The translations under genes and the position numbers were made by a program. Source: an uncultured Candidatus Saccharibacteria bacterium (GTDB lineage Bacteria; Patescibacteriota; Saccharimonadia; Saccharimonadales; CAYOYH01). Taken from it: a stretch of DNA of 38,805 bases. The stretch spans positions 1 through 38,805 of the forward strand of contig CAYOYH010000001.1 of assembly GCA_964408165.1 (NCBI GenBank). Direction: 5' to 3'. The notes beneath the pieces were generated by a model. It searched no databases. It saw nothing but the letters and a program-made list of their open reading frames with translations, and was not told where the DNA came from. Below, in pieces: positions 17,378-38,805 of this stretch (position 1 is the first letter of the stretch; each line of letters begins with the position of its first letter).

Positions 17378-17755
17378 CTAACCTCCAACCGGCGCGTAAA
17401 TGTGTTTTTGAGTCTGTTTGTAGTAATGAGTCATGGCTGTCACCAGGTTGCGTGACTCCTCAAGTGAAGTGTAGTGGTGCAATTGACCGTCTTGAGCTTT
17501 TAATATGCGCTCTCCCCGTATTTCATAACGAGTAGTCAGAGTAATGGTTTTGCCGGTGCTAGGGTCAATAGTTGATTCATACCAAATCCAGGTGTGTTCA
17601 TCTAGGCAGAAGAATTCTCGTCGGTGGCCTTTTGGTACTGGTCCAAACAAAGTGCCGCCAATTTTAGATTCCATGCGAATAAGGTCTCTTTCGGTGAGGG
17701 TTTTTTGGCTAGGTGCTGGGGTGATTAAACTTATTGCCCTGTGCAAAATAGACAT
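17378..17755 (-). CDS. hypothetical protein
   Basis: 125-aa ORF tightly coupled to the upstream 84-aa ORF. Confidence 0.45.
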   Translation of the reverse strand: MSILHRAISLITPAPSQKTLTERDLIRMESKIGGTLFGPVPKGHRREFFCLDEHTWIWYESTIDPSTGKTITLTTRYEIRGERILKAQDGQLHHYTSLEESRNLVTAMTHYYKQTQKHIYAPVGG

Positions 17756-20285: not shown

Positions 20286-20327
20286 TTTAAAACTACTCCC
20301 GGAGGTTGCCTTTCTCTTGATGCACGT

Positions 20328-22373: not shown

Positions 22374-22535
22374 CTTCTATGGTGACAATTTTAACACAAC
22401 TCGCTTTAGGTTCTAAGAGGCGTACTTCCTGGCATGGTTGTCAGTGCGAGCAAACTCACATATTTCTCAACTTGGAGTTCGCGGATTTACGGCATGGACA
22501 CATCAATCTGCGCTGTCGATGCTATTCGTGCAAAG

Positions 22536-23471: not shown

Positions 23472-23517
23472 GCGGGCACGATTATAGACGAACGAAGAAT
23501 AAACACTAGTTTTATAA

Positions 23518-23688
23518 TCAGGACTTACGTGTTCGTAAGTTTGATGCTAGTTTGCTCCAGGTGGAATCCAGAGTTGTTTTCTCTGGTGAAAACATAGCCA
23601 AGCTACGTTTTAGCGCCAGAAAAATAAGCCTGGAACCGTCTGGTGTGAACGGTCACAAACTTACGAGCGCGTAAGCCCTGAAAGTGTC
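23518..23688 (+). repeat. intergenic repeat family D, copy 2
   Basis: Aligns with 8165..8333. Confidence 0.8.
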
Positions 23689-23820
23689 TATTTTGAAGTG
23701 ACGACTACCGAAAATGGTTCTCTTTTTGATACGCAGAGCGCTGTTTGCCCGCCAAGCATACAGCTCACTTAATGTTAATCAGGGGTATTCTTGGTGGAAA
23801 TTTTACGACCACGCACCGTT

Positions 23821-24558
23821 TTAACCTCGAATGTACGCCAGAAATCTACCAGTTTGGCCTTCTTTTCGGGCCGAGAAAAAACGATCGGTGTTTTCGTAGG
23901 TGCAAATACCTACGTCCTCAATTTGGGTTACACCCTCAGTCCGAAGTTGAGCCATGTTGACGCCCCGCAAATCCAGCCCATACTTACCGCCCTCTCGCGA
24001 CTTTGAATACTCGCTGTCAAAACGCTCGGCTACTTCTGGTCCGACCTCATAGCATTTACCGCAAATTCCCGGGCCAATTACCGCCATAATCTGGCTAGGC
24101 TCAGCGCCGAGCCGAGTCATCTGTTTTACAACTTTAGCTGTAATTTTACCGGCACTGCCCTTCCAGCCAGCGTGCGAAATACCAACGACACCGGACTGTT
24201 TATCTGCGAGCAAAATTGGTACACAATCGGCGACAGTTACTGCCAATGCCAAGTTTTTTAGTTTAGTTGCAGCACCGTCAACGCCATAAAGCGTCATTAG
24301 CCCGTCACATTTATCTACCGAAGCTACATTGCTCCCGCCCTCTAAGTACAGTAAGGCGCATTTTTTAATCGGTGGATTGGCTTCATCAAATATACTGGCG
24401 AGATTGGTAGTAACATTCTTAATTTTATCGAGCACAAGAGGCGAGACCTTGGTGTTGAGCGAATCCATCGGCGCTGGGCTAACACCACCACTGCGCTCGG
24501 TGAAACCGTGAGTAATGTTTAAGTTACTTAGTAGTGCCGATTTGACTATTTTCACCAT
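23821..24558 (-). CDS. pgeF: YfiH/PgeF (DUF152) family purine-nucleoside/peptidoglycan-editing enzyme
   Basis: HGFTERSGGVS, VADCVPILLAD, ISHAGWKG. Start at MVKIVKS. An alternative start at 24612 would overlap rsmA. Confidence 0.8.
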   Translation of the reverse strand: MVKIVKSALLSNLNITHGFTERSGGVSPAPMDSLNTKVSPLVLDKIKNVTTNLASIFDEANPPIKKCALLYLEGGSNVASVDKCDGLMTLYGVDGAATKLKNLALAVTVADCVPILLADKQSGVVGISHAGWKGSAGKITAKVVKQMTRLGAEPSQIMAVIGPGICGKCYEVGPEVAERFDSEYSKSREGGKYGLDLRGVNMAQLRTEGVTQIEDVGICTYENTDRFFSARKEGQTGRFLAYIRG

Positions 24559-24595
24559 GTTGTCGTTGGCGAGCGAAAATCTTGAAACTGTGTGA

Positions 24596-25363
24596 TTAGT
24601 GCAGTTTTTCATACAACTGCTTCCACTGCTTCAGGCTGAGCTCTTGAGCTCTTGAGTTTTCACCAAGTCCACCGTCAAGCACTATCGCGCGGACTTGGTC
24701 TTTGGTCATTCCTAACCCGCCCGAGAGCGAATTGATAAGTTTTTTTCGCCTTTCACCGAAGCCAGATTTTACTAGGCGAAAAAACTTAGCCTGGTCTAGC
24801 GCGTATAGCGGTTCATCTCTAGGTTTTAGCTGTATGATTTGTGAATCAACTTTTGGCGCTGGTTCGAAAAACTCTGCCAAAACCACCTCTTTTAAGTCAA
24901 CCTGCGCGTGAAACTGCGCACTAACGCTAAGCACTGACATGCTGCCCGGTTTAGCTGCGATGCGCTGGGCAACTTCTTTTTGCACCAACAAGGCGATTAG
25001 AGACGGTTGGTTGTTGGCTTCTAGAAGTTTTCTTAGGAGTTTTGATGTCAAATAGTATGGAATGTTGGCGACAACCTTGTAATTTGGTTTCATGGATTTC
25101 AAATCAAACTGCAATATATCACCCTCCACTAAGTTGATCTGTTCAGAGCTATAGCGCTTAGTAAGGTCTTCTACTAGCCGTTTGTCATATTCTACAGCCG
25201 CAACATTGGCGCCACGAGCCAGTAGTAAGTCTGTCAAGGCACCGAGACCTGGCCCAACTTCCAGTATTTCGTCTTTTTCTTTGACTTCACCAGCCTCGCA
25301 CATCGCTTCTAGCGAGGCGCTATCTTTGAGCCAGTGCTGTCCCAGACTTTTGTCTGTTTTCAT
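24596..25363 (-). CDS. rsmA: 16S rRNA (adenine1518/1519-N6)-dimethyltransferase
   Basis: LGQHWL, ILEVGPGLGALT, ANIPYYLTS. Confidence 0.9.
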   Translation of the reverse strand: MKTDKSLGQHWLKDSASLEAMCEAGEVKEKDEILEVGPGLGALTDLLLARGANVAAVEYDKRLVEDLTKRYSSEQINLVEGDILQFDLKSMKPNYKVVANIPYYLTSKLLRKLLEANNQPSLIALLVQKEVAQRIAAKPGSMSVLSVSAQFHAQVDLKEVVLAEFFEPAPKVDSQIIQLKPRDEPLYALDQAKFFRLVKSGFGERRKKLINSLSGGLGMTKDQVRAIVLDGGLGENSRAQELSLKQWKQLYEKLH

Positions 25364-25794
25364 TCTTGTACGTCTAAAACCTTAAGACCAACAGCTTCGT
25401 TGTGGGTTCGAGTTAGTGGTTTAGAGAAAGTTCGAATATATATTTCGCAGGTAGCCGCGGTAGCCGCTTCTTTAAGGTGGCCGCCGTAAACATGATAATT
25501 GCTATCGGCCATGGTCGCGTGCAAATGAAGGGCTGGTTTGTCGCCAATTAACGCAACTGTACCGCTGATGTTCGTAATCTCCAGTAGCTCATCATGGCGC
25601 TCGTACTCATAAGCGCGTTGCGCAAGATCATAAAACGCCAGCTCAGCCCAAAGGGCGCCACCAACTCCACTGACCACACCCGATTGAATATCTTTGTCTA
25701 TGCAAAATTGCGTCAGCGTACTAATAATCAGTTCGCCTTTCTCCAGGCGCACCATGTAGCCATCATCTACTTTTGCAAAAACCATTACAGGCAA
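25360..25794 (-). CDS. PPC (DUF296) domain protein
   Basis: LEITNISGTVAL...PALHLHATMADSNYHVYGGHL pattern. Confidence 0.65.
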   Translation of the reverse strand: MPVMVFAKVDDGYMVRLEKGELIISTLTQFCIDKDIQSGVVSGVGGALWAELAFYDLAQRAYEYERHDELLEITNISGTVALIGDKPALHLHATMADSNYHVYGGHLKEAATAATCEIYIRTFSKPLTRTHNEAVGLKVLDVQE

Positions 25795-25820
25795 GTATAG
25801 AGGAATTGGCGATTGGAATC

Positions 25821-25869
25821 TAGAAGTTAGAAGTTAGAATTTAGAAGCTAGAAGTTAGAAAATGGAAAA
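25821..25869 (+). repeat. imperfect heptanucleotide tandem repeat, 7 units
   Basis: tagaagt tagaagt tagaatt tagaagc tagaagt tagaaaa tggaaaa. Confidence 0.85.
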
Positions 25870-25959
25870 TGCCACAGGGTGGACGATAGAAAAAGCAGGA
25901 AGTAATGTTAGGTGAGAGGTCTGAGACTCCCAACTCCTGCGACCAAAGGTCGCTTACCT

Positions 25960-27228
25960 CTACCACCAATAGTTATCTTGCCAAAAAGCAAATGCTTGAG
26001 ACCAGGAGCCGTATCGAGCCTGAGCGTATTTATCGCACCAGCGAAGTTGCGTAATCGGGTTAGTCATGTAGTCGTCACCCGCACTAGCCATTTTGTAAGC
26101 AGGTAGAGATTGGCAGAGTCCATACGCACCAGAGCCAAGAGTATTCCAAACCAGATGCCTCCACTGGCTTTCTCTGGTAATAATAAAGTCAACATACGGC
26201 CAGTCAGACTGGGCAATTCCCGCTGCATTCATCCAGTACAGTTTATCTCCGGAAATGTCAATTTCTTTGGCTCCAATAATCACCACTTCGTCCTCTGGCT
26301 CGAGCAGTGTCACCTTCTGAAGTTTAATTCTCTCGTTTTCTAAGCCACCGCTAAGAATCACCTTGTACACAACTAGAGCCCTACCGGCTTCACCCGGAAT
26401 CTTCACTCGTTCACTACCAATGGGTGCGTTGGGATCGTTGATAACCTCACGCCCGTAAGCTACCACCTCCTCTTGAGCGACAACCTTCGTTCCTTCTCTG
26501 GTCACCGCTACACGCATACCATTAGTTATTGACGAGTCTAGTCCGGGTTCGACCACATCTGACTCCGCTAAAACAACCCCTTTGCCATCCAGGAAATCGC
26601 CGACTGTTGTGGCTTGGGTGCGAGCTTTTACTACAGTATCGTAGAGGATGAGCTCTATCTGTTCAGCACGATCAACTGCCAACTCCATGCCGACCACTCC
26701 ATTCAAGAAATCGTTTACTCTGGTCGTCTCGAATTCATCTTCCGGATGAACCGTAAGACCGGCTACTTGGGCGATTCTTTGGGGGCTTTGGTAGGCTGTA
26801 GCAACAATACTTCGAGTGTTGCCATCAACTATCGTAACTAGCCGTGCTCTGTAGATATTAATGCTAAATGTGCCACCAGCAACTACCTCATTGAGCCCCG
26901 GCTCAACTAGATCGTTTGAACCAATTACAAAATCGGCTCGACTAAGTACCTCCGATACCGTGCCTGCTTCAGTGACAAAACTTCTCTCGATTTGAGCGTC
27001 ATGGATTGTAACAATCGTTTTATCCTGGGCGCCTGTAGGGGTAGTCATAAAAATTACGATTACCGCAGTTGAAACCACGGCTACGAATATAAACAGACCG
27101 TCCTTCAGTGATTCATGAAATGTAAGTGATTTCAAAACTACGAACTCTCTTATCTTTAGCGCACCTAGGTAATGTCTGTCGAACTTTGAACTGTAGTTTT
27201 GTTTTGTCTTCGACTGAAAACTATACAA
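25960..27228 (-). CDS. RpfB-like cell-wall protein: TM anchor, DUF348 repeats, G5 domain, C-terminal transglycosylase/Apf-like domain
   Basis: Repeated xVxDxLxxxxxxLxxxDxVxPxL modules, a G5-like segment, and GSGAYGLCQSLP...RYGSWSQAFAFW. Confidence 0.75.
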   Translation of the reverse strand: MYSFQSKTKQNYSSKFDRHYLGALKIREFVVLKSLTFHESLKDGLFIFVAVVSTAVIVIFMTTPTGAQDKTIVTIHDAQIERSFVTEAGTVSEVLSRADFVIGSNDLVEPGLNEVVAGGTFSINIYRARLVTIVDGNTRSIVATAYQSPQRIAQVAGLTVHPEDEFETTRVNDFLNGVVGMELAVDRAEQIELILYDTVVKARTQATTVGDFLDGKGVVLAESDVVEPGLDSSITNGMRVAVTREGTKVVAQEEVVAYGREVINDPNAPIGSERVKIPGEAGRALVVYKVILSGGLENERIKLQKVTLLEPEDEVVIIGAKEIDISGDKLYWMNAAGIAQSDWPYVDFIITRESQWRHLVWNTLGSGAYGLCQSLPAYKMASAGDDYMTNPITQLRWCDKYAQARYGSWSQAFAFWQDNYWW

Positions 27229-27319
27229 AACGCAGTGGTAAATAGCAACTTTGATTGGATTTAGGATCTAGAAATTAGCCCCCAACTTCCAACTCCCTCC
27301 GCCCACCGGCGGATACTGT

Positions 27320-27763
27320 CTATCGTCTAAACCCCAGCGCTTCTTTGACTAGTGGGTGAAGGTTTTCGGGAAGCTGACTAATGTCAAACCAGCCCGCTTC
27401 GATTATCTCAGGACGGCGCACTACAAAAACCTCTTTTTGAGGCAACGAAACCTCAAAAACAACTACTGGAAAAACGACGGTGTCTTCGTGCTGTCTAGTT
27501 CTTAGGATTTCTCTGAGCAATCCAGGATCTACACTCACATCTAACTCTTCGGCTATTTCTCTGCTCAAACCCTGATTCGGCGTCTCCCCACGGTGAAGAC
27601 CGCCACCCGGCAGAACCCATTTCTGTAGTCCAATCCAGTTACGAAGCAGTAGTACTTCGTTTTTGTAAATTATTAATCCGCGAGTGCGCAACTTTCTGGA
27701 TATAAACAAACGGACAAAAGGCTTGGCGACAAAAAAGATAAATCGTCCAATTCTTTCGCTCAC
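27320..27763 (-). CDS. NUDIX hydrolase
   Basis: Nudix box GGGLHRGETPNQGLSREIAEELD. GTG start overlaps the pcrA stop by 1 nt. Confidence 0.85.
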   Translation of the reverse strand: MSERIGRFIFFVAKPFVRLFISRKLRTRGLIIYKNEVLLLRNWIGLQKWVLPGGGLHRGETPNQGLSREIAEELDVSVDPGLLREILRTRQHEDTVVFPVVVFEVSLPQKEVFVVRRPEIIEAGWFDISQLPENLHPLVKEALGFRR

Positions 27764-30700
27764 TAAGCTTTTTCCAGTGGCGCAAAAGCAACGTTAAGCT
27801 TCTTGGTGCCGCGAGCACCGAACTTTATTTCCGCAGTTTGTCCGTCTACACCCTTAACGATCCCAACACCAAACACTGGGTGTCTAACTCGGTCACCACA
27901 GTGAAGATTTATCGGCGCTTCCTGAGCGTCGTACTCGACAGTCGGCTCGCTACCAGCCATTTCAAGGTCGCCTGCCGCTGAGACTTCCGAATCTATCTCG
28001 CTCAAAAACCGCGACGGAGCATTGTGTTGCACTGCACCATAAAGCAGTCGATTGCCGGCGTGAACCAAGTGCAACTCTTCTTTAGCTCGGGTCATGCCAA
28101 CGTAGCAGAGCCTTCGCTCCTCCTCCATTTGCGCCTGTTCCCAGAAAGCTCTGGAATGAGGAAATATACCCTCCTCCATACCAGCCATAAACACCACTGG
28201 AAATTCGAGCCCTTTTGCCGCATGCAGTGTCATCAAAGTAACGGCATCGGCTTTGGTATCGTAGCTATCGATGTCGCTAAGCAAAGCTACTTCCTCTAAA
28301 AACCCGTCTATGCCGAGTTCGACATATTCATGCGCCACCGACAGCAGTTCCCGCACATTCTCAATTCTTGATTCGCCCTGCAGGGTTTTATCGTCCAGAT
28401 AGTCAAAATAGTTGATCTGGCGAATCAACATATCTAGCACATTTTGAAGCGACGCGTCCTGCGAATATTCACGCAATTTTTCTAGTAACTGCGCTAACTC
28501 AACTAAGCCTTTTAGAGCTCGCTTGGTGAGTTTCGGGTGGGTTGCTACTTGGTTCATAGCCTCTGGCAAACTAAGCCCCGAAGCCTCCTGCCAGGAAAAA
28601 AAGCTCTCCAACGATTTGGCGCCAACACCCCGAGCAGGAACATTGACGATACGCAGGAAACTAACCCTGTCACTAGGCTGATACATCAAGCGCAGGTAGG
28701 CCACGATATCCTTAATCTCTTTACGGTCATAAAAACGCACCCCGCCGACAATGCGATATGGCACTCCGTATTGAACAAAGGCTTCCTCCAGCGCCCTGGA
28801 CTGAGCGTTGGTGCGGTACAAAACAGCGAAATCGCTATATTTTCTTTTGCCCCTGCTCACTGCTGAGCGAACTGCCCGTATGACATGCTCGCCTTCTTCT
28901 CGTTCGCCGCGGACACTCTCCACCTGCACCGGCAAACCAGCCTGGGCGTCGGTCCAAAGCTCTTTTTTTGAGCGACTTTGGTTTTTGGTAATTATCTGGT
29001 GGGCAGCGTCCAGTATCGACTGCGTAGAGCGATAATTTTGTTCGAGCTTGATGAGCGTAGTGTCAGGATAGTCTTTCTCGAAATTCAAAATATTGCGATA
29101 ATCCGCCCCGCGCCAAGAATAGATTGAATTATGCACAACCACATTTGCGGCTACGTAGTTATGCACCTGGTCGATGTCTAGGTCATACACTTCGCCACTG
29201 AAGCTGTCTTTACTGACTTCGACCACTTTGTCGTTGATAATTTTACCTTTTTTCATCACTGGCAACTCCATGCCGGCGTGAACTTGCCCAGCGGGCATGA
29301 ATGAGTATTTTTTATCAGAAATATTGGCAAATTTATTCACCTGCATTATTTCCTTATTCGCCGCTACCCTGTCGAGCAATTGTTCGATCTTTCCAAAATC
29401 TTTACTAAACACTTCTACGCGATAGGTTCCTTGTTTGCCTTGTCTCACATTTAGGCCCAGTTTTTCGAAAACTTTTAGGTCTTTTTTACTGGTGGTATTG
29501 ACCGATAATCTACTTGCAGACCAAGGGCTGGTAGTAGATATGCGTCTATCTCCAAAAAGTACAACATTTAGATTGACTCGCTTTAACCCATTGCGCACGG
29601 TCGCCTGAGGCTGGAAATGTGGATATTGAAAATTAATTGTTAAATCGCTCATTAGTTTTTGGGCTCTGTCTTTTGTATCTATTTCGGAAAAAATCGAGTC
29701 AATATATTTTTGGTCAAACTTCATTTGCCTGTTGGAATAAGCATGGAAAAGGAGCATTGGAATTCCGTATTTATACGAATACAAAGACTCCCAATAAAGA
29801 GCTTCTTGTCGGTTGGCACAAATTTTCAACACCCACATTCGATCAGCTCTTTCTTGATTGGCACGAACGCGTAGTCCGCTGTCGTACCCTCTTCCATCGC
29901 TGCGCGAACCTTTAGTGATTCCGATCCTGTAACCCTTGCCGCGCGAATACATTAAATACACAAAGTAGCCCTCTATTTTACCCCCCCTAGCGAACAGAAG
30001 ATGGTTTGGCGTAACGCGCAACTTCTGGTTTGAAGCTGTTTTAATAACCACCACGGCACCTTGGTATTTAAACTTGCGCAACTTCGTAACCTCAAAAAAC
30101 CCTGTTTTGCCGTAGCCACTCGCTGAGTGCACCATGTCGCCTTTTTTTACGATTTCAATATTCATCTCGCCGTTAGCAGTTTTAACTTTTGTGCCAGGAA
30201 GGAGGCATTGCCAGTCGTCGCCCACAACACAGATATTTTGATGTTTCTTGGCTAAAATTTTCACCAGCTGATACTGCGCAGCGTTAGTGTCTTGGTATTC
30301 GTCTATCAAGATATGTGAAAAATGCTTCTGCCATTTGGCGCGAACCTTCGTAGAACTTTCCAGCATCTGAACCGTTTTTTGCAACAAATCGTCAAAATCC
30401 AGCGCATTGGCTTCTTTGAGTAGTTTCTGGTAGACAACAAACACATCAGCGACTACCTTTTGGTTTGGTGTAGAGGCAGTAGCGGTGTAGTCTGACGGGC
30501 TCAGCATTTCGTTTTTAGCGCTGGAAATTAGACTAGCCACAGTTCTGGGCGCGTATTGCTTGGGATCAATACTAAGGCGTTTCATAGATTCTTTAATTGC
30601 CGCCGTCTGGTCTAGCGTGTCGAAAATGACGAAATTAGCTGGAATCGATATGTGTTCGCCATCTAGGCGTAAGAGGCGTACGCAGATAGAGTGGAAAGTC

Positions 30701-30975
30701 CCCATGAACGGCATCCAGCCACGGTTTGGGGCGGACTGTGAAGAACCGGTCATGAGTTCGTAAACTCGATTGCGCATTTCACCAGCCGCTTTATTGGTAA
30801 AAGTGACCGCCAATATATTCTCTGGAGCAATGTTTTTTTCACTCACCAAATAAGCGATGCGGTGCGTCAGAGTTTTGGTTTTACCACTGCCGGCACCAGC
30901 TAAAATCAAAAGCGGTCCATCGGTTTGTTGGACAGCCTTTTTTTGCTGATCGTTTAACCCCTCGAAAATATTCAC
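27763..30975 (-). CDS. pcrA: PcrA/UvrD-family ATP-dependent DNA helicase interrupted by an intein
   Basis: AGAGSGKT, ILIDEYQDTN, VVGDDWQ / SIYSWRGAD split, YRSTQ, VMTLHAAKGLEF, YVGMTRAKE, C-terminal HPVFGVGIV Tudor-like tail. GTG start. Confidence 0.9.
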   Translation of the reverse strand: MNIFEGLNDQQKKAVQQTDGPLLILAGAGSGKTKTLTHRIAYLVSEKNIAPENILAVTFTNKAAGEMRNRVYELMTGSSQSAPNRGWMPFMGTFHSICVRLLRLDGEHISIPANFVIFDTLDQTAAIKESMKRLSIDPKQYAPRTVASLISSAKNEMLSPSDYTATASTPNQKVVADVFVVYQKLLKEANALDFDDLLQKTVQMLESSTKVRAKWQKHFSHILIDEYQDTNAAQYQLVKILAKKHQNICVVGDDWQCLLPGTKVKTANGEMNIEIVKKGDMVHSASGYGKTGFFEVTKLRKFKYQGAVVVIKTASNQKLRVTPNHLLFARGGKIEGYFVYLMYSRGKGYRIGITKGSRSDGRGYDSGLRVRANQERADRMWVLKICANRQEALYWESLYSYKYGIPMLLFHAYSNRQMKFDQKYIDSIFSEIDTKDRAQKLMSDLTINFQYPHFQPQATVRNGLKRVNLNVVLFGDRRISTTSPWSASRLSVNTTSKKDLKVFEKLGLNVRQGKQGTYRVEVFSKDFGKIEQLLDRVAANKEIMQVNKFANISDKKYSFMPAGQVHAGMELPVMKKGKIINDKVVEVSKDSFSGEVYDLDIDQVHNYVAANVVVHNSIYSWRGADYRNILNFEKDYPDTTLIKLEQNYRSTQSILDAAHQIITKNQSRSKKELWTDAQAGLPVQVESVRGEREEGEHVIRAVRSAVSRGKRKYSDFAVLYRTNAQSRALEEAFVQYGVPYRIVGGVRFYDRKEIKDIVAYLRLMYQPSDRVSFLRIVNVPARGVGAKSLESFFSWQEASGLSLPEAMNQVATHPKLTKRALKGLVELAQLLEKLREYSQDASLQNVLDMLIRQINYFDYLDDKTLQGESRIENVRELLSVAHEYVELGIDGFLEEVALLSDIDSYDTKADAVTLMTLHAAKGLEFPVVFMAGMEEGIFPHSRAFWEQAQMEEERRLCYVGMTRAKEELHLVHAGNRLLYGAVQHNAPSRFLSEIDSEVSAAGDLEMAGSEPTVEYDAQEAPINLHCGDRVRHPVFGVGIVKGVDGQTAEIKFGARGTKKLNVAFAPLEKA
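29128..30207 (-). mobile_element. 360-aa intein in helicase motif III (residues 257-616)
   Basis: Starts CLLPGTKV, has block B VTPNHLLF, and ends VYDLDIDQVHNYVAANVVVHN followed by Ser+1. Excision restores DDWQSIYSWRGA. Confidence 0.85.
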
Positions 30976-31414
30976 TACACAAATAGTCTATAGCAATCCT
31001 CCAGGTACAAAAGCCCTAAATTCCTGGTGATGAATTACTGGGGGGTCAAAAACTACTTCTTCGATTGAGGCATACCTGGCGGTTCTCAAACAAACAGGTT
31101 TCAAGGGTGGCACCCTTGAAAACCCTTCGGAAAAATACTTTTCGTAAAGGAGGCCCCTGGGTTCACAAGGGGCTACCCCTTGCGACCTTGTAGTATTCGT
31201 AACCAGCCTAGGATTTTTGGTTACTGAGGCACGGCTAGGAAGATGTCAGTTTTGTTCCTGCGGGATTGCTATCGGCCGGAGAGTTTCATCTTGATGTAAC
31301 CAAAGAATGCCAACTGGCACTCGATATTTCATGAAAAGCGGATTTAACTCGAATTCTCATTATAAAGATTTTGAATGCGAAGTGTTGAGGCCTAGCAGTA
31401 GATGGAGGTTTTTA

Positions 31415-32245
31415 TTAGCTTAATGCAACCAAAGAAGCTAAATCGATTATCTCTAGTTCACTCAACACATAGGCCGTGGCTAAAATGACTACCAAAACAG
31501 CGATGAACACCTTGATAGATCCGCTTTGGCGGTGATGGTGACTGATTTTTATAGGTACATGATACTGCTTGGTGTCGAAGGTTTTGAGCGCCTCACCTCC
31601 TGAGGCACCAATGGTTCCTTCTGTTGATTTTGCATTAGGTATCTGAGCCTCTAGTTCGTCGGTATTGCCTGGGCTCTGCTCGGCAAGAACAGGATTTGAC
31701 GGTAGGGTCTTGATGACAGGTTTTTCTGGCTCTAGTTTTTTCTTTGGCGCTGCCTCAGCTTCTTCTTTGGCCGGCTCCCTCTGCTTTAGTTGCAACTCCT
31801 CAGTCATCGGCTGGTCTTGAATTTTTTTGGACTCTTTTGTCTTTAGTGGTGGTCTCACAACCACATCCACAATAGACCTTGCCGTAGGCTTAGGCATTAC
31901 TTTGACCGTATCATTGGCCGACTCACCGATTGGCTTAAGTTTAGTGTTGGAAACAAGCATAGTCTGACTCTCCCCTTTTCCGGGAGATGCGATACTAGTT
32001 TTTTCATCTTTTTTTACGTAGGCATTTCTTGTGACAATCTTAATGTCACCGGCAACTTCTTTGGACTGTTCTTGCTTCTTGATTGTGGAAGCTGGCTCAT
32101 TTTCAACAATAGTCTTCGAGGCTGGTTTTTCCATCAGCTTTGGTCTAGTGGCTATCTCGTCCATATGAGCGTCAATAGCCGCTGACAGCTCGTCGATAGA
32201 CATGTCTTCGTCATTGTTATCTTGGGGTGTGTCCTTGGCTGTCAT
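31415..32245 (-). CDS. hypothetical tail-anchored, Lys/Glu/Pro-rich low-complexity protein
   Basis: 276 aa with a single C-terminal TM helix (IKVFIAVLVVILATAYVL). Starts 3 nt downstream of the tpiA stop codon. Confidence 0.55.
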   Translation of the reverse strand: MTAKDTPQDNNDEDMSIDELSAAIDAHMDEIATRPKLMEKPASKTIVENEPASTIKKQEQSKEVAGDIKIVTRNAYVKKDEKTSIASPGKGESQTMLVSNTKLKPIGESANDTVKVMPKPTARSIVDVVVRPPLKTKESKKIQDQPMTEELQLKQREPAKEEAEAAPKKKLEPEKPVIKTLPSNPVLAEQSPGNTDELEAQIPNAKSTEGTIGASGGEALKTFDTKQYHVPIKISHHHRQSGSIKVFIAVLVVILATAYVLSELEIIDLASLVALS

Positions 32246-32248
32246 TTG

Positions 32249-33016
32249 CTAACTCCCGGCTAAATGGTGCGCCGAGCTAACAATCTCGGCAAATTGCTTG
32301 TAATTGAGGCTGGCACCGCCAACTAAGAGACCGTCTACGCCCTCGATGTTCATATAGCTTTTGGCGTTGTCTGGCTTTACGCTTCCACCGTAGAGCACCC
32401 TTAGTCCTTGTTCGGCTTTCGGACCATAAAGTTCGCGTACATTATGTCGGATAAAGTCTGTTGCTTCTTTGACTTGGTCTGGCTTGGCATAGTCACCGGT
32501 GCCTATGGCCCAAACCGGTTCATAAGCAATTGCTAAATCTTGAATTTCTTTGGCGGTTAGATTGCGCAAATCGGCCATTAATTGATCGTGTAGCACTTGC
32601 TTGGTTTCACCGCTAACGCGATCGACTGATGCTTCGCCGACACACAAGATTGGCTTTATTTTGTTTCGCACTAGGGCTGAGAGTTTTTTGCCGATGATGT
32701 CGTCGGTCTCGCCGAAAACATGCCGTCTTTCGGAATGGCCAACCAGACAGTAATCCACCAACCCATGAAGCATAGCTGCCGATACTTCGCCGGTGTAGGC
32801 GCCTTCATCTTTGTAGAATGCGTCCTGAGCGCCCAGTTTCATTTTGTGTTTGTTGGTCTGTAGATTGAGTGGCTGAATAGACATGATGCTAGGGAAAATA
32901 ACTACCTCTACATCTCGGTGCGCTTCGATATTTTTCTCAAGTCTATGCAGTAAAACACTGGCCTGATGGGTGTTTAGATTCATTTTCCAGTTACCGGCGA
33001 TTAGTTTTTTACGCAT
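32249..33016 (-). CDS. tpiA: triose-phosphate isomerase
   Basis: AGNWKMN, VGHSERR, AYEPVWAIGTG, LYGGSV. Confidence 0.95.
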   Translation of the reverse strand: MRKKLIAGNWKMNLNTHQASVLLHRLEKNIEAHRDVEVVIFPSIMSIQPLNLQTNKHKMKLGAQDAFYKDEGAYTGEVSAAMLHGLVDYCLVGHSERRHVFGETDDIIGKKLSALVRNKIKPILCVGEASVDRVSGETKQVLHDQLMADLRNLTAKEIQDLAIAYEPVWAIGTGDYAKPDQVKEATDFIRHNVRELYGPKAEQGLRVLYGGSVKPDNAKSYMNIEGVDGLLVGGASLNYKQFAEIVSSAHHLAGS

Positions 33017-33231
33017 AAGTTTTTCTATAGCCCACCTTCGTTCTTATGGTTACTATCATAAGTTACCGAGGCGAAACTGGCAACACGAACTCGAGTCCTG
33101 TCGTAGTATCTTTAAAAACTTTCCCGCTGACTAGAGTGGCTGACTGGCGGTGAATTCGGATATGCGCAGGTACTTAAATAAAAGTCAGCACCTGGCTCTA
33201 GCAAGCCTGTTTGACTACCCAAGAAATCGGA

Positions 33232-34419
33232 TTATTTATCCAGGAGCGCTTCAACGCCTGGTAAATCTCTGCCAGCCATCAGCTCTAGGCTAGCTCCACC
33301 ACCAGTGGAAACATGAGTAAATTTGTCCACTAAGCCAAGCTTATGTATAAACCCAGCGCTGTCGCCACCGCCAATAATACAGTTTAAGTTTTGGCTGGCG
33401 ATAAACTTGGCCACTTCTTCGGTGCCTTTTTTGAACTTTTCAAACTCAACTACACCTAAGGGGCCGTTCCAGATAATCGTGCCGGCGGTTTTTAGGGTTT
33501 TTTTAATATTCTCGATAGTGCGGGGACCAAAATCCATTATTATGTCGGCACTGGCGACATCTTCGGTGGCAACATCATGCCTTTCGGAGCTTTGGTCAAA
33601 GCTAGTCCCCACTGCTACATCAAAAGTCGGTAGTATTAGTTTGGTTTGGCTCAGTTCGCAGTGTTCTATTACCTCTTTGGCGGTGTCTGTTTCGTGGGGG
33701 TCGTATTTGCTAGAGCCGACATCGTAGCCCATGGCCACTAAAAAAGTATTGGCCATCGCTCCGCCAACAATCATGCTGTCTGAAGCTTCTAAAAAGCGCT
33801 CCAACAGATCAATCTTGTCCGCTATTTTGGCGCCACCGACCATCGTTACTAGCGGTTTTTGGGGGTCGTTAATCGCTTTGTTTATGGCTAAAACCTCGCC
33901 CTCTAGCAGTAGTCCGGCAACGGCTGGTAAGAACTGAGTGATGGCGTCAGTACTGGCGTGCGAGCGGTGCACTACCCCGAAGCCATCTTGGACGAAATAA
34001 TCGGCTAGTTTGGCTAGTTGTTTGGCGAACTCAGCGTCATTGCTTTCTTCCTCTTTGTGAAAACGCAAGTTTTCTAATAACAACACCTCGGCAGGCTTTA
34101 ATTTTTTCGTAGCTTGCCAGGCGCCGTCGCCAACAGTTGTTGGTGAAAAAGCAACTTCTTGGCCTAGAAGTTCACTCAGCCTCTGGGCTACAGGTTCTAG
34201 GCTTAAATCTTTGCTTACCCCTGGGCCAGGTCGCCCTAGGTGGGAAATGATGATGACTTTGGCGTTTTGATTTAGTAAATACTGGATTGTTGGTATGTTT
34301 TTGCGGATGCGGTAATCGTCGGTGATTTTGCTGTCGCTCATTGGCACATTGTAATCAGCACGCACCAAAACGGCTTTATCTGTAAAATCTATATCTCGAA
34401 CGGTTTTTTTATTGAACAT
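33232..34419 (-). CDS. pgk: phosphoglycerate kinase
   Basis: VRADYNVP, ISHLGRP, GGAKIADKI, IIGGGDS, STGGGASLE. Start at MFNKKTV. Confidence 0.95.
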   Translation of the reverse strand: MFNKKTVRDIDFTDKAVLVRADYNVPMSDSKITDDYRIRKNIPTIQYLLNQNAKVIIISHLGRPGPGVSKDLSLEPVAQRLSELLGQEVAFSPTTVGDGAWQATKKLKPAEVLLLENLRFHKEEESNDAEFAKQLAKLADYFVQDGFGVVHRSHASTDAITQFLPAVAGLLLEGEVLAINKAINDPQKPLVTMVGGAKIADKIDLLERFLEASDSMIVGGAMANTFLVAMGYDVGSSKYDPHETDTAKEVIEHCELSQTKLILPTFDVAVGTSFDQSSERHDVATEDVASADIIMDFGPRTIENIKKTLKTAGTIIWNGPLGVVEFEKFKKGTEEVAKFIASQNLNCIIGGGDSAGFIHKLGLVDKFTHVSTGGGASLELMAGRDLPGVEALLDK

Positions 34420-34544
34420 CTTGAGTCTTAGTGTACCAAAACACTTATGGTTTTTTCGAATAAACCTCAAAGAAACAGCAACACTTCAACACGTGCTCTT
34501 GGTTTGCGAACCGAGGTTCGACCTTCTCCGGAGAGAAGTACCAA

Positions 34545-34569
34545 TCAAAAACGCCACCGCAAGGGTGGC
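34545..34569 (-). terminator. intrinsic terminator after tRNA-Glu
   Basis: On the minus strand, gccacc-cttgc-ggtggc is followed by GTTTTTG. Confidence 0.7.
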
Positions 34570-34578
34570 ATGTTTGAT

Positions 34579-34653
34579 TGGTGATCCCAACGGGAGTCGA
34601 ACCCGTATTTCCAGGATGAAAACCTGGTGTCCTAACCATTAGACGATGGGACC
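34579..34653 (-). tRNA. tRNA-Glu (anticodon UUC), CCA encoded
   Basis: GGTCCCATCGTCTAATGGTTAGGACACCAGGTTTTCATCCTGGAAATACGGGTTCGACTCCCGTTGGGATCACCA folds as a cloverleaf with a 7-nt anticodon loop UUUUCAU. Confidence 0.9.
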
Positions 34654-34654
34654 G

Positions 34655-34929
34655 TGTTTTTATTGTAACAATATTTTGAATTTAACGATGTTGATCTACT
34701 TGTAGTTCCCGATGAATCGGGAGGTGTCCTACTCACCGATATTTGTCTGGTGACAAATTCGTCGAGCCCACCTCGGCGCCGCCCATGCCTCCGGCCTTGC
34801 GAAATGCCACTAGCAGTTCTACCACGGTCTTACTCGCTACAAAGTAGCGAATCAGCCGTCGCCACACCTCGCATCGGGCGTTAACACGCGCCGGTGCTCC
34901 GGTCTTGCGGAATGCTCCCAGCATTCCTC
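34655..34929 (-). ncRNA. candidate structured RNA or insertion, bracketed by an 18-bp direct repeat of the tRNA-Glu 5' end
   Basis: The direct repeat cattagacgatgggaccg is at 34637-34654 and 34930-34947. The interior is GC-rich with many hairpins. A TATAAT on the minus strand lies at 34968-34963. Confidence 0.3.
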
Positions 34930-35044
34930 ACATTAGACGATGGGACCGCTAAAGACGAACGATATTATAGCTTATATCTCGCGCTGACAGAAGTGTTGGT
35001 GACATTTTTTGACATAGAAGCGATTGGGTGTTTTTATTAGATGC

Positions 35045-35401
35045 ATGAACCCTGAGAAATCGACACCTCATGGCGTGTTTAACGATTTTGAATTTACACC
35101 TGTGGGCTGGTGGTTAGACACCTTAGCGGAGGAAATTGCAAAAGAATTAGGGAAGGCTCCTAGAATTGGGCGAGGCTCTGTGGTATTGGAACAAAACGAG
35201 AACGAAACTATTGTTTCGTTCCGCCAAAATGGTTCAGAATCAATAGTCAGTATCCTCGAGATAGATGGTCGAATCGTTCTGAAAGTGCACCCTGAAGCAG
35301 AAATCCTAACCCCTGACCACGCTGACGACATCGCTCATGAATTAGTACACCAGCTCGGCTACGCCGAACATCATCCTGGCCCCAGTAAAAGTTGTTGCTA
35401 G
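35045..35401 (+). CDS. hypothetical small protein with a C-terminal HExxH motif
   Basis: ORF with an ATG at 35045 and the motif AHELVHQLGY. A TTGACA lies at 35009-35014. Confidence 0.45.
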   Translation: MNPEKSTPHGVFNDFEFTPVGWWLDTLAEEIAKELGKAPRIGRGSVVLEQNENETIVSFRQNGSESIVSILEIDGRIVLKVHPEAEILTPDHADDIAHELVHQLGYAEHHPGPSKSCC

Positions 35402-35474
35402 GCATCGGTTTCTAGGAGTCGTGAATAACTACTTAAAACCGCACCGCAATCCTGACATTTCAAATTCAATTATT

Positions 35475-35500
35475 CAGGACTTACGCGCTCGTAAGTCCTG
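35475..35500 (+). terminator. 11-bp-stem hairpin related to the family D repeat head; likely terminator
   Basis: caggacttacg-cgct-cgtaagtcctg is followed by ttattat. Confidence 0.5.
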
Positions 35501-35678
35501 TTATTATAACTTTCTGAGGGCCGGAGTATTTATTATAATTTCATCTGTAAATTTAGTAAGTTAGCAGAGTGCAGTCTTTGCCAGCTCTTGCGAGTCAACT
35601 GACAGAGGTGTCCCTGCTGGCAAGTACTGTAAATATCGCCCCTTGAGTAAACAACTACCTCGCCGTTTCATTCTCACT

Positions 35679-35714
35679 ATTATACATATATGACGGCCGT
35701 CATATATGTATAAT
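35679..35714. promoter_or_regulatory. third copy of the 36-bp palindrome (perfect)
   Basis: attatacatatatgacggccgtcatatatgtataat. It differs from the 9013 copy only by a symmetric G>A / C>T pair. Confidence 0.7.
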
Positions 35715-36016
35715 TTGGGTCGCGACCTCAAGTTCGATTATTATACAAAAGGTTACGATCGTGAGTTTTGGTATAATAATTATTCCCCGGCAACAGATAA
35801 GAACTGTACCAAAATCTGTGGTCGTGTCTCTCGAAAAAACAACGAGAAACAAGTCGAAGCTATCTTGCACAGGCTTAAAACTTCACTGGCAGTGGCGGTG
35901 GTGTTTTAAAAATACTTGCCTCGGCAGTAAACCATCCTGTGGTTTTTTATAAAACTCGGATGAAACGCTCGCTCGACATTCCCCCTTGTGCTTTTTGAGA
36001 TTATATTATAAAAGCA

Positions 36017-36045
36017 TTGACATAATCATTTTTATATTGTAGGAT
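36017..36045 (+). promoter_or_regulatory. candidate sigma70-type promoter (TTGACA, 17-nt spacer, TAGGAT)
   Basis: TTGACA at 36017-36022 and TAGGAT at 36040-36045. Confidence 0.35.
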
Positions 36046-36689
36046 GTAGCCATCATCGTTTTGCGGCATGTGAGGTGGAGACTCACGAACAAGCGGGATG
36101 ACCGTTTGGACGCCCCGGGAAGATTGGGAAGTTTCACATCAGAATACAGGACTATTCGATAGGTCCGACGTTTCAGTCGGACTGTCTAGATTAGTTTTTT
36201 GTTTTCTGGAGACTCTCGCATATAGGCAACGCATTAAACCGCGAGAAATCTGTATGAGAGTGGAGTTCGAGGAAGAGCCGAGCACTAGAGTGAGCTGTAT
36301 GAATAATACTGCAAACGAAGCGCGCCAGGTTCTGACGACGAAATACGCCTCATGCAGGTTTCTGAGCCAAGTAGGACGAGTGGGCACATTAATAAGTCAA
36401 ATCGTTACAGTTTATTATTTTTCGAATTCTGACACAGCAGATCAGTTCATGAAGTGAATTCATGAATTCGCTGCTGTTATTGGCGACTACATCGTTGCTG
36501 AACTCCAGTAACTTTTTAGCGGTACCATCTTGTACAGCTAAAAAGCTGCTTCGTTCGCGCCTTGTGTTCGTCTAATCAGAATACGAAAAAATAACTTTGC
36601 TTCGTTTACTGAGAGCAGCTATATGTGCGCGGGGGTTTTATAAATGCATGCCGCAATTATTCACCCTGCGCATATTTCTCTGCTTTCAG

Positions 36690-36905
36690 TGCGTAATGGA
36701 TTCGTCTATTACAGATGAGGCAGTAGGTCTATGGCTTCGGCTATAGACTCTGTAACACTACTCAATAAAACCTGTTTTTAGAACATTTGATACTTCTTCT
36801 TTGATTTCGGGCAGTGTATTGCGGGCGATAATTCGCCTGTAGCACACTGCCCAAACGGGACAGTAGTAGCTTCGGCTATTTAAGCTATCCCGCAAGGGAA
36901 GGAGT
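36690..36905 (+). ncRNA. candidate structured leader/ncRNA with three UUCG-capped hairpins and one GCAA-capped hairpin
   Basis: Hairpins at 36693-36712, 36726-36749 and 36865-36880 (UUCG loops). A nested stem joins 36809-36817 and 36844-36852. ccc-gcaa-ggg at 36889-36898 abuts the SD. Confidence 0.4.
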
Positions 36906-36911
36906 TTGATA

Positions 36912-37529
36912 ATGTCCATGGAAAACGTTGACGGGGTTGATGAGGGTCGTCAGATCCTTACCGCCCTTGGCGTTGCTGTCCGACAGCGCGCCACCGAAGC
37001 GGCCAAAGAGGCAGCCGCGCTCCTTGCTCAGCTCCAAGAGTTAAGCAAGGAAAGCTCAGTCGCCGAAATTGGCGCCCGAGCCGTTCAACAGCACATTGCT
37101 GATGAAATCGGCGAAGTCGCCGAGGAGACCGCCACGGCAGGCGAGGAAGCTGGGCAACTCGAAGCTGTTATCACGGGCACCACGCCCGTGTCCTCGCCGC
37201 CAGATGGCGACGAGGAGGAGACAGACGACGAAGAAGTCGTCCCGCCTCTAGCAGCACCCGAGCCGACGACTGCCCCCACGGCAATCGTCCGCCACCCCCG
37301 TAACTGGGGTTGGCTGGCTTGGGCAACGGCGATCATCGCGGGGTTTCTAACCCTAAGATTCGTCGTCATGCCTGCCTCCGGTCCGATATCCGAGTTTTTA
37401 CTCGGTCCCGCCGGATGGAGCTGGCTGGTAACAACCAGTCAGTGGGCGCTCGGTGCTACAACCACCCTCACGGGGTTCTACCTCGGTGGATGGTTGGGTT
37501 CCTGGCTAGACGAGGAGGTACTCTCCTAA
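36912..37529 (+). CDS. hypothetical membrane protein (acidic helical N-terminus, Pro-rich linker, Trp/Gly-rich C-terminal TM helices)
   Basis: GGAG lies 7 nt upstream of the ATG at 36912. GC-rich codon usage differs from the rest of the window. Confidence 0.6.
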   Translation: MSMENVDGVDEGRQILTALGVAVRQRATEAAKEAAALLAQLQELSKESSVAEIGARAVQQHIADEIGEVAEETATAGEEAGQLEAVITGTTPVSSPPDGDEEETDDEEVVPPLAAPEPTTAPTAIVRHPRNWGWLAWATAIIAGFLTLRFVVMPASGPISEFLLGPAGWSWLVTTSQWALGATTTLTGFYLGGWLGSWLDEEVLS

Positions 37530-37700
37530 TCTAGTCAGCTACGAGTTAGCAACTCATAAAAATTGCTCGGATGTGGCTAGAATTGCCCTGGTGCAAGCTA
37601 GATGAGATGCAAATTCTCATACATCCGCTAAGTCCCATAATCCTCTGGGGACTCAAAGAAATTAGAGGCCGTCGCTCTATACCCTTAGGAGGTATTTAAG

Positions 37701-38805
37701 ATGGAGCGTCAAAAAACCTGGCGTGACGGAGCGAAGGCCTTCTTCGCTTTAACAACGCTGATCATCGCCATGATGGCGATGATTTGGCTTCTCGTTGGTG
37801 CATTTAGCACTGACGAAGAAGGATCAGGCGACGCAACAGCGCCGTCTGAGGAAACGACCACGGTGCCTGCCACGACCACGACGACCATCGTAACCATCGC
37901 CGACGAAGAGTCGGGAAACCTAATGGTTGCGGAAGTCGCCGAGTGGTCTCCAGTGTTTAACGCTGGAGACTTAGTGCAGGATAGCACCATGTGTAGCTTC
38001 TTCTCTTCGGAAACAGAAGCATATGCATGGATCAGTGCGGTTCAGATTGCTACAGAGGAGTCCGAACAGGATTTCCTCGACATCTTCAATGAGCGCTATC
38101 AAGTGCTCCGCAAAGATTACTGGCAACAATTGCCTACGGCTGCCCTCAACATGATGAAGTTCATGGAAAAGGGAAAACCTTGGTTACCTGAGCTGGTAGA
38201 AGCTCTGAACGGGGCTGGTTCCTGGGATGAGGAAAACCCATCGAAGACGATGGTCCTCGTCGAGGAACTAACCTGGACGTCTGTAGTCAAGACTCCAACC
38301 AGTTTCCGCACCACAGGGTGTCGGAACCACGGCGAGTCAGACGATTCGGGGTTCCGAACCGTCTTCAAGGCTCAGAATGTGACTGTGTCACCTGATGACC
38401 CCGACTGGGTTCCGACCCTTGTCGATGTCATCTTGCCATCCGTTATCAACATGCGCCTGCAGACTGAAGGTTCCGACCTTCGAGTGCATATGGTGCAGTT
38501 GGATGATGGCATTGCGTTTGACATTGTGAACCTTTCCACCCAGCGTGGAAAGAGGATCGAAATCGATCGCAAGGCGAGCGTGCCAGTTATCGTTGTCGAT
38601 GAGAAAAGCAACTTCGTGTATACGGAGATGTTGTTCTCGACCGTTTGCGGCAATCCACCCTTGCCGGAGTTCGCTCCGCCACGCAAGGTTGAAGCCACGA
38701 CGACCACGACTGTGCCGCCGACAACAACGACGACCACTCTGCCGCCGACGCCGACCACCACAACGCTGCCGCCGACGCAGCCCCCCAACACGCAGCCGCC
38801 GGAGG
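37701..38805 (+). CDS. hypothetical signal-anchored surface protein with Thr/Pro-rich linkers (partial, runs off the window; not in the supplied ORF track)
   Basis: AGGAGG at 37687-37692, 8 nt before the ATG. My manual translation gives 368 codons without a stop: MERQKTWRDGAKAFFALTTLIIAMMAMIWLLVGAF...TTTTTVPPTTTTTTLPPTPTTTTLPPTQPPNTQPPE. Confidence 0.75.
   Translation, partial: MERQKTWRDGAKAFFALTTLIIAMMAMIWLLVGAFSTDEEGSGDATAPSEETTTVPATTTTTIVTIADEESGNLMVAEVAEWSPVFNAGDLVQDSTMCSFFSSETEAYAWISAVQIATEESEQDFLDIFNERYQVLRKDYWQQLPTAALNMMKFMEKGKPWLPELVEALNGAGSWDEENPSKTMVLVEELTWTSVVKTPTSFRTTGCRNHGESDDSGFRTVFKAQNVTVSPDDPDWVPTLVDVILPSVINMRLQTEGSDLRVHMVQLDDGIAFDIVNLSTQRGKRIEIDRKASVPVIVVDEKSNFVYTEMLFSTVCGNPPLPEFAPPRKVEATTTTTVPPTTTTTTLPPTPTTTTLPPTQPPNTQPPE

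Follow-up and report, generated by a model that had tools for sequence, protein, structure and literature searches.

A probable leader RNA interrupted by two structured intergenic repeats upstream of a putative surface-protein operon in an uncultured Saccharibacteria bacterium

Introduction

The window, as we call the whole stretch of DNA analysed here, comprises 38,805 nt (contig CAYOYH010000001.1) and comes from the chromosome of an uncultured Saccharibacteria (TM7) bacterium. Towards its right end lie the genes for TIM and PGK, a tRNA-Glu gene and, at the very end, two plus-strand genes of a putative surface/membrane-protein operon. The subject of this study is the region of about 950 bp directly upstream of this operon, bounded by a terminator-like hairpin (~35920-35950) and the ribosome-binding site (RBS) of the gene starting at 36912. 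An earlier note had described it as lacking convincing coding potential, rich in stable hairpins and a candidate for a large structured RNA or a complex leader.

Saccharibacteria and other bacteria of the candidate phyla radiation (CPR) have tiny genomes, and to our knowledge almost no regulatory RNA has been described in them. If true, a leader of 0.5-0.9 kb would be among the first cis-regulatory RNAs proposed for CPR bacteria. Located in front of rapidly evolving surface-protein genes, it would offer a route to study the control of envelope proteins in an obligate epibiont.

In this study, we show that the region is a mosaic. It consists of a conserved structured leader of ~570 nt in total (36051-36243, 36364-36417 and 36591-36911) and of ~290 nt contributed by two inserted copies, A3 and A4, of a widespread structured repeat. 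The leader probably acts in cis on the two-gene operon downstream.

Results and discussion

The locus and its homologues

The features of the locus are collected in Table 1. From 36900 onward the G+C content rises from ~45% to 54-57%; both operon genes share this composition against ~45% for the genome, and they have almost no relatives. The first gene has no homologue among 5.8 billion proteins and hence could not be used for locating related loci. The second gene has four homologues only (36-56% identity), a family of 5 members among 5.8e9 proteins, and a profile search with it found no additional loci. The homologues lie on contigs L123 (syntenic, with TIM, PGK and a tRNA nearby), L124, L125 and L126. 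They carry a lipobox or a membrane anchor together with Thr-rich linkers, which indicates a cell-surface role for the second protein. Its AlphaFold model is of low confidence (pLDDT 57.6) and gave no match in a Foldseek search against the PDB. In place of the first gene the other loci carry unrelated membrane-protein genes; those of L123, L124 and L126 show no detectable similarity to the 205-aa gene.

Table 1. Coordinates of the features discussed (MFE, minimum free energy; SD, Shine-Dalgarno; R1, covariance model of the A family)
Feature	Position	Strand	Basis or remark
A1, full 173-nt A-family unit	1046-1218	+	20-mer copy at 1098
A2, full 173-nt A-family unit	9838-10010	+	20-mer copy at 9891
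TIM	32249-33016	-	
PGK	33232-34419	-	
tRNA-Glu	34579-34653		Rfam scan at gathering threshold
Upstream box CTTGTGCTTTTT	35985-35996	+	~20 nt 5' of the -35 hexamer; YTTGTGYTTTTY at the matching place in L123, L124, L125
Sigma-70-type promoter TTGACA-17-TAGGAT	36017-36045	+	Promoter scan; orthologous promoters in 3 loci
Predicted transcript start CATCATCGTTTTGCGGC and hairpin GUGAG (36070-36074)/CUCAC (36082-36086)	36051-36086	+	Start identical in 4 loci
Last hairpin of the 5' domain	36141-36206	+	Inner stem 36158-36169/36176-36186, then U-run TTTTTTGTTTTC at 36195-36206
A3, long irregular hairpin with the 20-mer AGCTGTATGAATAATACTGC at its apex	36244-36363	+	cmsearch with R1
Leader block AAGTCAAATCGTTACAG	36394-36410	+	Between A3 and A4; similar blocks in L123, L124, L125
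A4, inverted diverged 173-nt unit	36418-36590	-	cmsearch with R1, and architecture
Long hairpin H5	36607-36691	+	Apical CATGCCGCAA (36647-36656) complementary to the transcript start
Short stable hairpins H6, H7	36693-36750	+	UUCG-type loops; MFE structures
CU-rich tract ACTTCTTCTTT	36792-36802	+	Candidate anti-SD
Hairpin H8	36809-36852	+	Homologous hairpins in L123 and L125
Hairpin H9, UUCG apex	36857-36891	+	Sequence and MFE
CCC-GCAA-GGG hairpin	36889-36898	+	Competes with H9; sequence and MFE
SD AAGGAG of the gene at 36912	36899-36904	+	Sequence
First operon gene	36912-37529	+	205 aa, predicted membrane protein
Second operon gene	37701-38805	+	Runs off the window; N-terminal membrane anchor, Thr-rich linkers, conserved domain

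The window, L123, L124 and L125 have leaders that all stand upstream of the same rare gene family, and in 4/4 loci the leader abuts the downstream open reading frame (ORF) on the same strand. The leaders of L123, L124 and L125 measure 539, 721 and 668 nt, compared with 861 nt in the window. All four start with the same order of elements, namely the YTTGTGYTTTTY box, the -35 hexamer, a 17-nt spacer, the -10 hexamer, CATCATCGTTTTGCGGC and the GUGAG/CUCAC hairpin.

The closest genome in the species collection is the Saccharibacteria metagenome-assembled genome L002, whose PGK is 76% identical. It is syntenic with 19585-34670 of the window. The L002 contig ends at tRNA-Glu and is therefore unusable for comparing the region upstream of the operon. 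Searches of phage and plasmid collections by blastn gave no match to 34654-38805, and judging from these comparisons the studied stretch is not phage or plasmid DNA.

Coding potential and strand-biased folding

Concerning coding potential, the earlier assessment held: there is no gene call, no Pfam match and no homologue, and the similarity in homologous loci is of a non-coding kind. A protein-coding stretch might be seen in the ATG-initiated ORF 36098-36457 (119 codons, 119 aa). This ORF lacks an SD sequence, has no Pfam match and finds 0 matches in a set of 1.84 billion representative proteins. On the 3-kb Logan contig L001, which is identical, no gene is called between 35909 and 36912. Moreover, the ORF runs through the inserted A3 element, the homologous leaders hold no ORF corresponding to it, and tblastx similarity to them is limited to the promoter block. 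We consider it highly improbable that the stretch encodes a protein.

The hairpins and motifs listed in the earlier note are all present at, or a few bases from, the places where it had put them. The RNA of 36046-36911 is predicted to fold at -345.8 kcal/mol compared with -245 for dinucleotide shuffles (z -15), and its antisense at -257.6 kcal/mol (z -7). Background 200-nt windows have a median z of ~-0.4, and PGK reaches ~-1. Among the four leaders, sense-strand z is -16 in the window, -8.4 in L123, -15 in L124 and -10 in L125, as opposed to -5 to -7 for antisense. The sense strands exceed the antisense strands in stability by 27-83 kcal/mol; each leader has 27-42 G-U pairs. When A3 and A4 are removed, the window leader (~570 nt, near the size of the others) retains z -7.9 in sense and -5.3 in antisense orientation. 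The case for a structured RNA is carried by this strand bias and by comparative evidence, not by the z-score alone.

The same observations bear on the possibility that the region is non-functional intergenic DNA, an accumulation of palindromic or mobile hairpins and products of gene decay in which only the promoter is functional. Two interspersed-repeat insertions are demonstrable, further repeat palindromes lie upstream at 35402-36016, and sequence turnover between loci is high. In L123 (5427-8965), glmS, a DinB-type polymerase gene and an S24 peptidase gene stand between the tRNA and the leader; in the window, 34654-36016 is without these genes and holds a 125-aa ORF (35024-35401), for which no relatives were found, repeats and a 67-aa ORF. 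Pseudogene remnants of these genes were looked for in 34654-36911 by tblastx against L123, and none were found. Neutral decay of palindromes should be strand-neutral, whereas in 4/4 leaders the sense strand is by far the more stable. In addition, pairing of hairpin H8 is kept through six double changes, and a GCCGCAA box, a CU-rich tract and the order of modules are conserved (see below). We find this explanation quite unlikely. The earlier note had named lack of structural conservation at homologous loci as grounds for giving up its proposal; what we find there is sense-biased folding in all four leaders and covariation in H8.

Known RNA families were looked for with Rfam 15, which covers riboswitches, T-box, leaders, OLE/GOLLD/ROOL/HEARO/raiA, group I/II introns and small RNAs (sRNAs). 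At the gathering threshold, tRNA-Glu is the sole match in the window. At E values up to 10, 34400-38805 gives only chance miRNA-type matches far under threshold, and the leaders of L123-L126 give no match. No known family of large non-coding RNAs or riboswitches is matched, and our literature search found no description of the leader RNA or of the A-family RNA.

Two inserted copies of a structured repeat

The 20-mer of repeat family A, which had been recognised earlier, is present exactly at 36292-36311 and with one mismatch at 1098 and 9891, where chance would yield none. The latter two belong to full 173-nt units, A1 and A2. The unit is predicted to fold into three parts: a stem that closes it, a long irregular hairpin with the 20-mer as its cap, and a second hairpin. 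Around 36292 the long hairpin is kept with a different stem sequence. On the plus strand, covariance model R1 matches 36232-36370 (99.9 bits, E 9e-22), 9828-9969 (96.5 bits) and 1036-1177 (87.4 bits). On the minus strand it matches 36461-36598 (27.4 bits, E 3e-4). The inverted unit A4 consists of a closing stem (36418-36432/36576-36590), a long hairpin with a 9-bp stem at its apex, and a second hairpin (36435-36476, cagcag/TTCATGAA). It shares this three-part architecture and its length with A1, A2 and units of L083, L106 and L002. Folding energies are biased towards one strand, with -50 kcal/mol sense and -32 antisense for A3, and -92 and -91 kcal/mol (+) compared with -73 and -77 (-) for A1 and A2, respectively.

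As judged from these matches and architectures, A3 and A4 are later insertions of an interspersed structured element of ~140-175 nt into the leader. The block AAGTCAAATCGTTACAG lies between them and recurs in the other leaders as AGGTCAAATCATGATAG (L123), AAGCCAAATCATTACAG (L124) and AAGCCATATCTATGTGAG (L125), read directly from the sequences, which fits two independent insertions flanking it. R1 has no match in the leaders of L123-L126. Of the earlier proposal, the complex leader is supported, with its structure and several modules conserved in homologous loci, and the single uniform RNA is not: about one third of the stretch is two inserted repeat copies, one of them on the opposite strand. 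Three of the elements listed earlier, all of them present, belong to the insertions and not to the ancestral leader. These are the 9-bp stem (a palindrome at about 36512-36546), the duplicated TTCATGAA palindromes within the CAGCAG/CTGCTG stem (36435-36476), and the 20-mer. As seen here, a single call of a large structured RNA made from the sequence only can conceal a mosaic of host leader and insertions.

The A family is not confined to the window. A metagenome scan found the exact 20-mer in 41 contigs, as opposed to roughly 2 expected by chance (an estimate). They come from groundwater and other sites, and the family is apparently common in CPR-type metagenome contigs. Among viral contigs, the 19-nt core of the 20-mer was found in none. 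In these contigs the sequence around the 20-mer again forms the hairpin, with stems that differ completely. RNAalifold predicts 29 pairs, 21 of them with compensatory changes. In 38 model-aligned sequences, 88% of cells pair compared with 34-44% with slid partners, and 25/29 pairs are changed on both sides; as the alignment was fitted to R1, these counts lean towards the structure. Rfam matched no family at ten loci with an A-family element.

Several metagenome contigs hold 2-3 copies on either strand, as tandem or inverted pairs. Copies are strictly intergenic, their orientation to neighbouring genes is mixed, and the neighbours are housekeeping genes; an rve transposase lies near a copy in one contig only. 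L002 has a copy between the homologues of 24596-25794 and 25960-27228, and there is none at the syntenic site of the window. No A-family copy occurs in 79 other loci of Saccharibacteria and Chloroflexota, which add up to 1.25 Mb. The closing stem covaries without being conserved in sequence; its arms are candidate inverted repeats, and the flanks are unalignable so that no target duplication can be read.

In being multi-copy, strictly intergenic and hairpin-forming, in occurring in either orientation and as tandem or inverted pairs, and in presence or absence between related genomes, the family resembles REP/BIME, ERIC/IRU, the Correia elements of Neisseria and pneumococcal BOX/RUP. It differs from them in its 20-nt apex, which is exact while the stems differ completely, and in its heavy compensatory change. 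Further differences are its strand-biased stability through G-U pairs, the lack of a definable terminal inverted repeat or target duplication, and the finding of no associated transposase. The family may be of wider interest, being a ~140-nt element not in Rfam whose 20-nt apex is invariant and which has undergone extensive compensatory change. Known from 41 metagenome contigs and two Saccharibacteria genomes (the window and L002), it is ready for RNA family libraries and marks a previously unannotated class of intergenic sequence.

Other identities for the A family were tried and rejected. A retron, a signal recognition particle RNA, 6S RNA and an integron attC were set aside on copy number, strand bias and missing motifs, with Rfam scans as the only search. 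A small peptide or type I toxin gene was rejected since indels between members break the frame, and the peptide of the AUG frame is hydrophilic.

A1 and A2 are ~90% identical with compensatory changes in the closing stem, and partial tandem modules (907-965 and 9753-9800) precede them. They are antisense to the flanking minus-strand genes and would therefore need their own promoter if transcribed. Elsewhere, A-family elements are found inside core translation operons (L089 6280-6778; L117 7417-7560 and 9174-9352; L095; L102, L115), where they lie between infC and rplT or next to rpsD/rpoA. Some stand 10-14 nt upstream of the start codons of rpsM, rpsS and rplT. Two contigs have an A-family element within ~15 nt of a tRNA gene.

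Promoter and 5' domain of the leader

The promoter proposed earlier scores 10/12 matches in the promoter scan, and three other loci have kept a counterpart at the orthologous position: TTGACA-17-TAGATT in L123, TTGACA-17-TACTAT in L125 and TTGACT-17-TAATAT in L124. Its -35 hexamer is embedded in AAGCATTGACA; L125 has ATATATTGACA. By blastn, 36012-36086 is 83% identical to L123, and 35985-36075 is 76% identical to L124. From promoter position and conservation, transcription would start near 36051-36053 and give an RNA of ~860 nt up to the RBS at 36899-36904. The first 30 nt are the most conserved sequence of the region. In a search of 126 loci, the 17-nt start CATCATCGTTTTGCGGC was found only in the window/L001, L123, L124 and L125. 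The leader 17-mer also gave 7 matches in viral contigs, all of them rejected as chance without flanking similarity.

The last hairpin of the 5' domain includes the mutually exclusive hairpins pointed out before, in which GGAC..GGTCC overlaps GTCCGAC (36163-36169)/GTCGGAC (36176-36182). A hairpin with U-run is also found in L123 and L125, ~125-155 nt from the start and with changed upper-stem sequence; L124 is without U-run. This early hairpin may be a terminator or an attenuator, though not a clean terminator.

This raises the question whether the first ~155 nt (36051-36206) form an RNA of their own, a small RNA or a riboswitch-like sensor that has a terminator to itself. The remainder would then be transcribed by regulated read-through or from another promoter, and the 5' sequence would act in trans on a distal GCCGCAA loop. 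The recurrence of hairpin and U-run at the same distance in three loci, the competing hairpins overlapping the 5' strand of the U-run hairpin and the high conservation of the first 30 nt are consistent with such an RNA. A weak promoter-like site (36389-36418, promoter scan) would suit the second transcript; it is located at the A4 boundary, and there is no equivalent elsewhere. Against a separate RNA, no riboswitch or leader family of Rfam matches even at E up to 10, the U-run is paired with an upstream A-rich strand in the predicted folds, the terminator scan makes no call, and L124 has no U-run. We regard a separate small RNA as unlikely, though it is the first of the alternatives that we would consider.

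Distal modules up to the start codon

The leader proper continues downstream of the insertions with H5. Here the apical loop may contact the 5' end of the transcript: TTGCGGCATG (36061-36070) is the 5' strand of a proposed long-range helix with 36647-36656. A GCCGCAA(A) box is present in 4/4 leaders 270-600 nt downstream, in loops of the MFE structures. For the first 22 nt of the transcript, this box ranks first among duplex partners in the window, L123 and L124 (-19.8, -21.2 and -22.0 kcal/mol, respectively) and second in L125 (-18.6 kcal/mol). The helix is kept at ~10 bp; the window and L123 extend it on the CAUG side, L124 and L125 on the AAAAC side. As a crossing interaction, it is one that MFE predictions cannot show. 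Such a pairing, deduced from sequence complementarity, would tie down the 5' end.

Three UUCG-type hairpins were recovered (~36693-36712, 36726-36749 and 36865-36880); the first two are H6 and H7, for which no homologue was identified in the other leaders. The nested long-range stem, GGGCAGTGT (36809-36817) paired with ACACTGCCC (36844-36852), corresponds to H8. In the window, L123 and L125, the 19 pairs of H8 have 96.5% of cells paired compared with 35-53% with slid partners, and 6 pairs are changed on both sides.

The 3' end is built around the SD. The GCAA-capped hairpin is confirmed directly against it, with the ATG at 36912. L123, L125 and L126 also have hairpins abutting or enclosing the SD. 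Among possible duplex partners of the SD region, the tract ACTTCTTCTTT scores best (-16.7), and the MFE structure of the window pairs the two. A CU-rich tract just 5' of H8 ranks first as SD partner in L125, second in L124 and third in L123, and pairs with the SD in the MFE structures of the latter two. These predictions point to an SD-sequestering clamp that would enclose H8 and H9. On the plus strand, the terminator scan found no terminator-like site between 36513 and 36912.

A large non-coding RNA comparable to OLE, GOLLD or ROOL that stands on its own, has its own function and merely happens to lie upstream of the operon would also explain why the leaders are 540-860 nt long, are predicted to be very highly structured and favour the sense strand at four loci. 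The long-range loop interaction and a tRNA gene a few kb away would suit it as well. No large RNA of Rfam matches, however, and the leader is always oriented with the downstream gene and abuts it, with no terminator before an SD around which its 3' end is built. Its primary sequence conservation is very low, unlike that of known ornate RNAs, and two insertions of 120-173 nt are tolerated. An independent RNA of this kind appears rather unlikely to us.

A probable cis-acting leader and its possible mechanism

On balance, we favour as probable that the region is the cis-acting 5' leader of the two-gene surface/membrane-protein operon, with two inserted A-family copies. It has a promoter conserved in four loci, lies on the same strand as the gene and shows no terminator before the SD. 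Such a leader would control translation and/or stability of the operon mRNA. We propose that the invariant 5' end UUGCGGCAUG pairs with the distal hairpin loop CAUGCCGCAA and closes the leader into a compact domain, and that the tied-down 5' end may protect the mRNA from 5'-end-dependent decay. The early hairpin with its U-run might end some transcripts after ~155 nt and so serve as an attenuator. The CU-rich tract 5' of H8 would pair with the SD region, and this clamp would have to open for the first gene to be translated. The inserted repeats would be self-contained hairpins that the leader tolerates.

Several points weigh against this reading. There are only four leaders, barely alignable beyond the first ~90 nt apart from a few short blocks and H8, which puts most predicted hairpins beyond the reach of covariation testing. 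A global MAFFT alignment was unreliable past the first ~100 nt, and RNAalifold on the 5' domains gave nothing useful. The fifth locus, L126, has a different leader. The 8-nt core of the helix between 5' end and loop is invariant on both strands, so that this helix rests on conservation and register shifts, not on true covariation. The CU-rich tract is outranked by stronger partners of the SD region in L124 and L123. In the window, 8 nt separate the terminator-like stem from the U-run, and a simple terminator scan did not call the hairpin and U-run of the window, L123 or L125. The neighbouring coding region 36912-37529 has z -8/-9, equal on both strands; since it is strongly negative as well, the z-score alone is not diagnostic of a functional RNA and overstates the distinctness of the leader. 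Finally, where the transcript starts, that it passes the U-run and that it continues into the gene are all inferred. As a separate observation, the coding region 36912-37529 is strongly folded on both strands without obvious inverted repeats.

Long structured 5' untranslated regions stabilise the mRNAs of abundant envelope or surface proteins in other bacteria, as for the leaders of E. coli ompA and of the Lactobacillus S-layer gene slpA and the 5' stem-loop of B. subtilis aprE. The Saccharibacteria leader resembles them in its strong near-consensus promoter, its position as an untranslated leader before a surface-protein gene, its predicted base-paired 5' end and its stable hairpins near the SD. 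It differs in being 4-8x longer, with ~10 hairpins and no sequence relationship, and in pairing its 5' end with a loop 270-600 nt away instead of a local stem; mRNA stabilisation here is a conjecture. With SD-sequestering elements such as ROSE and fourU thermometers and riboswitch platforms it shares a pyrimidine-rich tract able to pair with the SD in four leaders and a competing hairpin at the SD (CCC-GCAA-GGG versus H9). Its anti-SD, however, lies ~90-230 nt upstream and encloses whole hairpins, and no aptamer or thermometer family matches. Like OLE, GOLLD, ROOL, raiA and HEARO, it has several hundred nt of dense, sense-specific predicted structure and a long-range contact of tertiary type. 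Unlike these, it matches no covariance model, is fixed 5' of one operon, and has very low sequence conservation and four examples only.

A more far-reaching interpretation is conceivable, and we hold it tentatively and with more doubt than belief. The leader might represent a novel class of cis-regulatory RNA, large, ornate and confined to one Saccharibacteria lineage. In it, a pseudoknot between 5' end and loop together with the anti-SD clamp would gate fast-evolving surface proteins of an episymbiont. Separately, the A-family unit might be a widely spread, so far undescribed CPR-type RNA, be it a small RNA transcribed on its own or an element mobile at the RNA level, whose invariant apical hairpin (GCUGUAU-GAAUA-AUACUGC) would bind a conserved factor.

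Other repeats and folded stretches of the window

Around tRNA-Glu, the first 17-19 nt of the gene are repeated 275 nt away (34929-34947). The tRNA is co-directional with PGK in the window and divergent from it in L002; in L123 a tRNA at the matching position is also divergent from PGK. The segment 34725-34804 is 79% identical to a module inserted inside the A-family element of L109. Taken together, this suggests that the DNA was rearranged here or that an old integration site is present.

A 36-nt near-perfect palindrome, ATTATACGTATATGACGGCCGTCATATACGTATAAT, is present in 3 copies (8393-8428, 9013-9048 and 35679-35714), two of which bracket ORF 8435-8989. Contig L001 begins in the middle of the third copy, which suggests that assemblies break there. 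The hairpin CAGGACTTACG..CGTAAGTCCTG at 35475-35500 is also found as inverted arms (23518-23543 and 23656-23681) around a 115-nt unit (23532-23644) that is 82-88% identical to 8178-8291. Its stem GGACTTACG is the commonest closing-stem sequence of metagenomic A-family members. The intergenic stretch 17201-17400, without Rfam match, folds strongly with a bias to the plus strand (z -8.4 versus -2.0). It contains a repeat, GTGGGCGGAGGGAGTT, with copies at 17113-17135 and 17343-17365 and an inverted one at 27286-27306.

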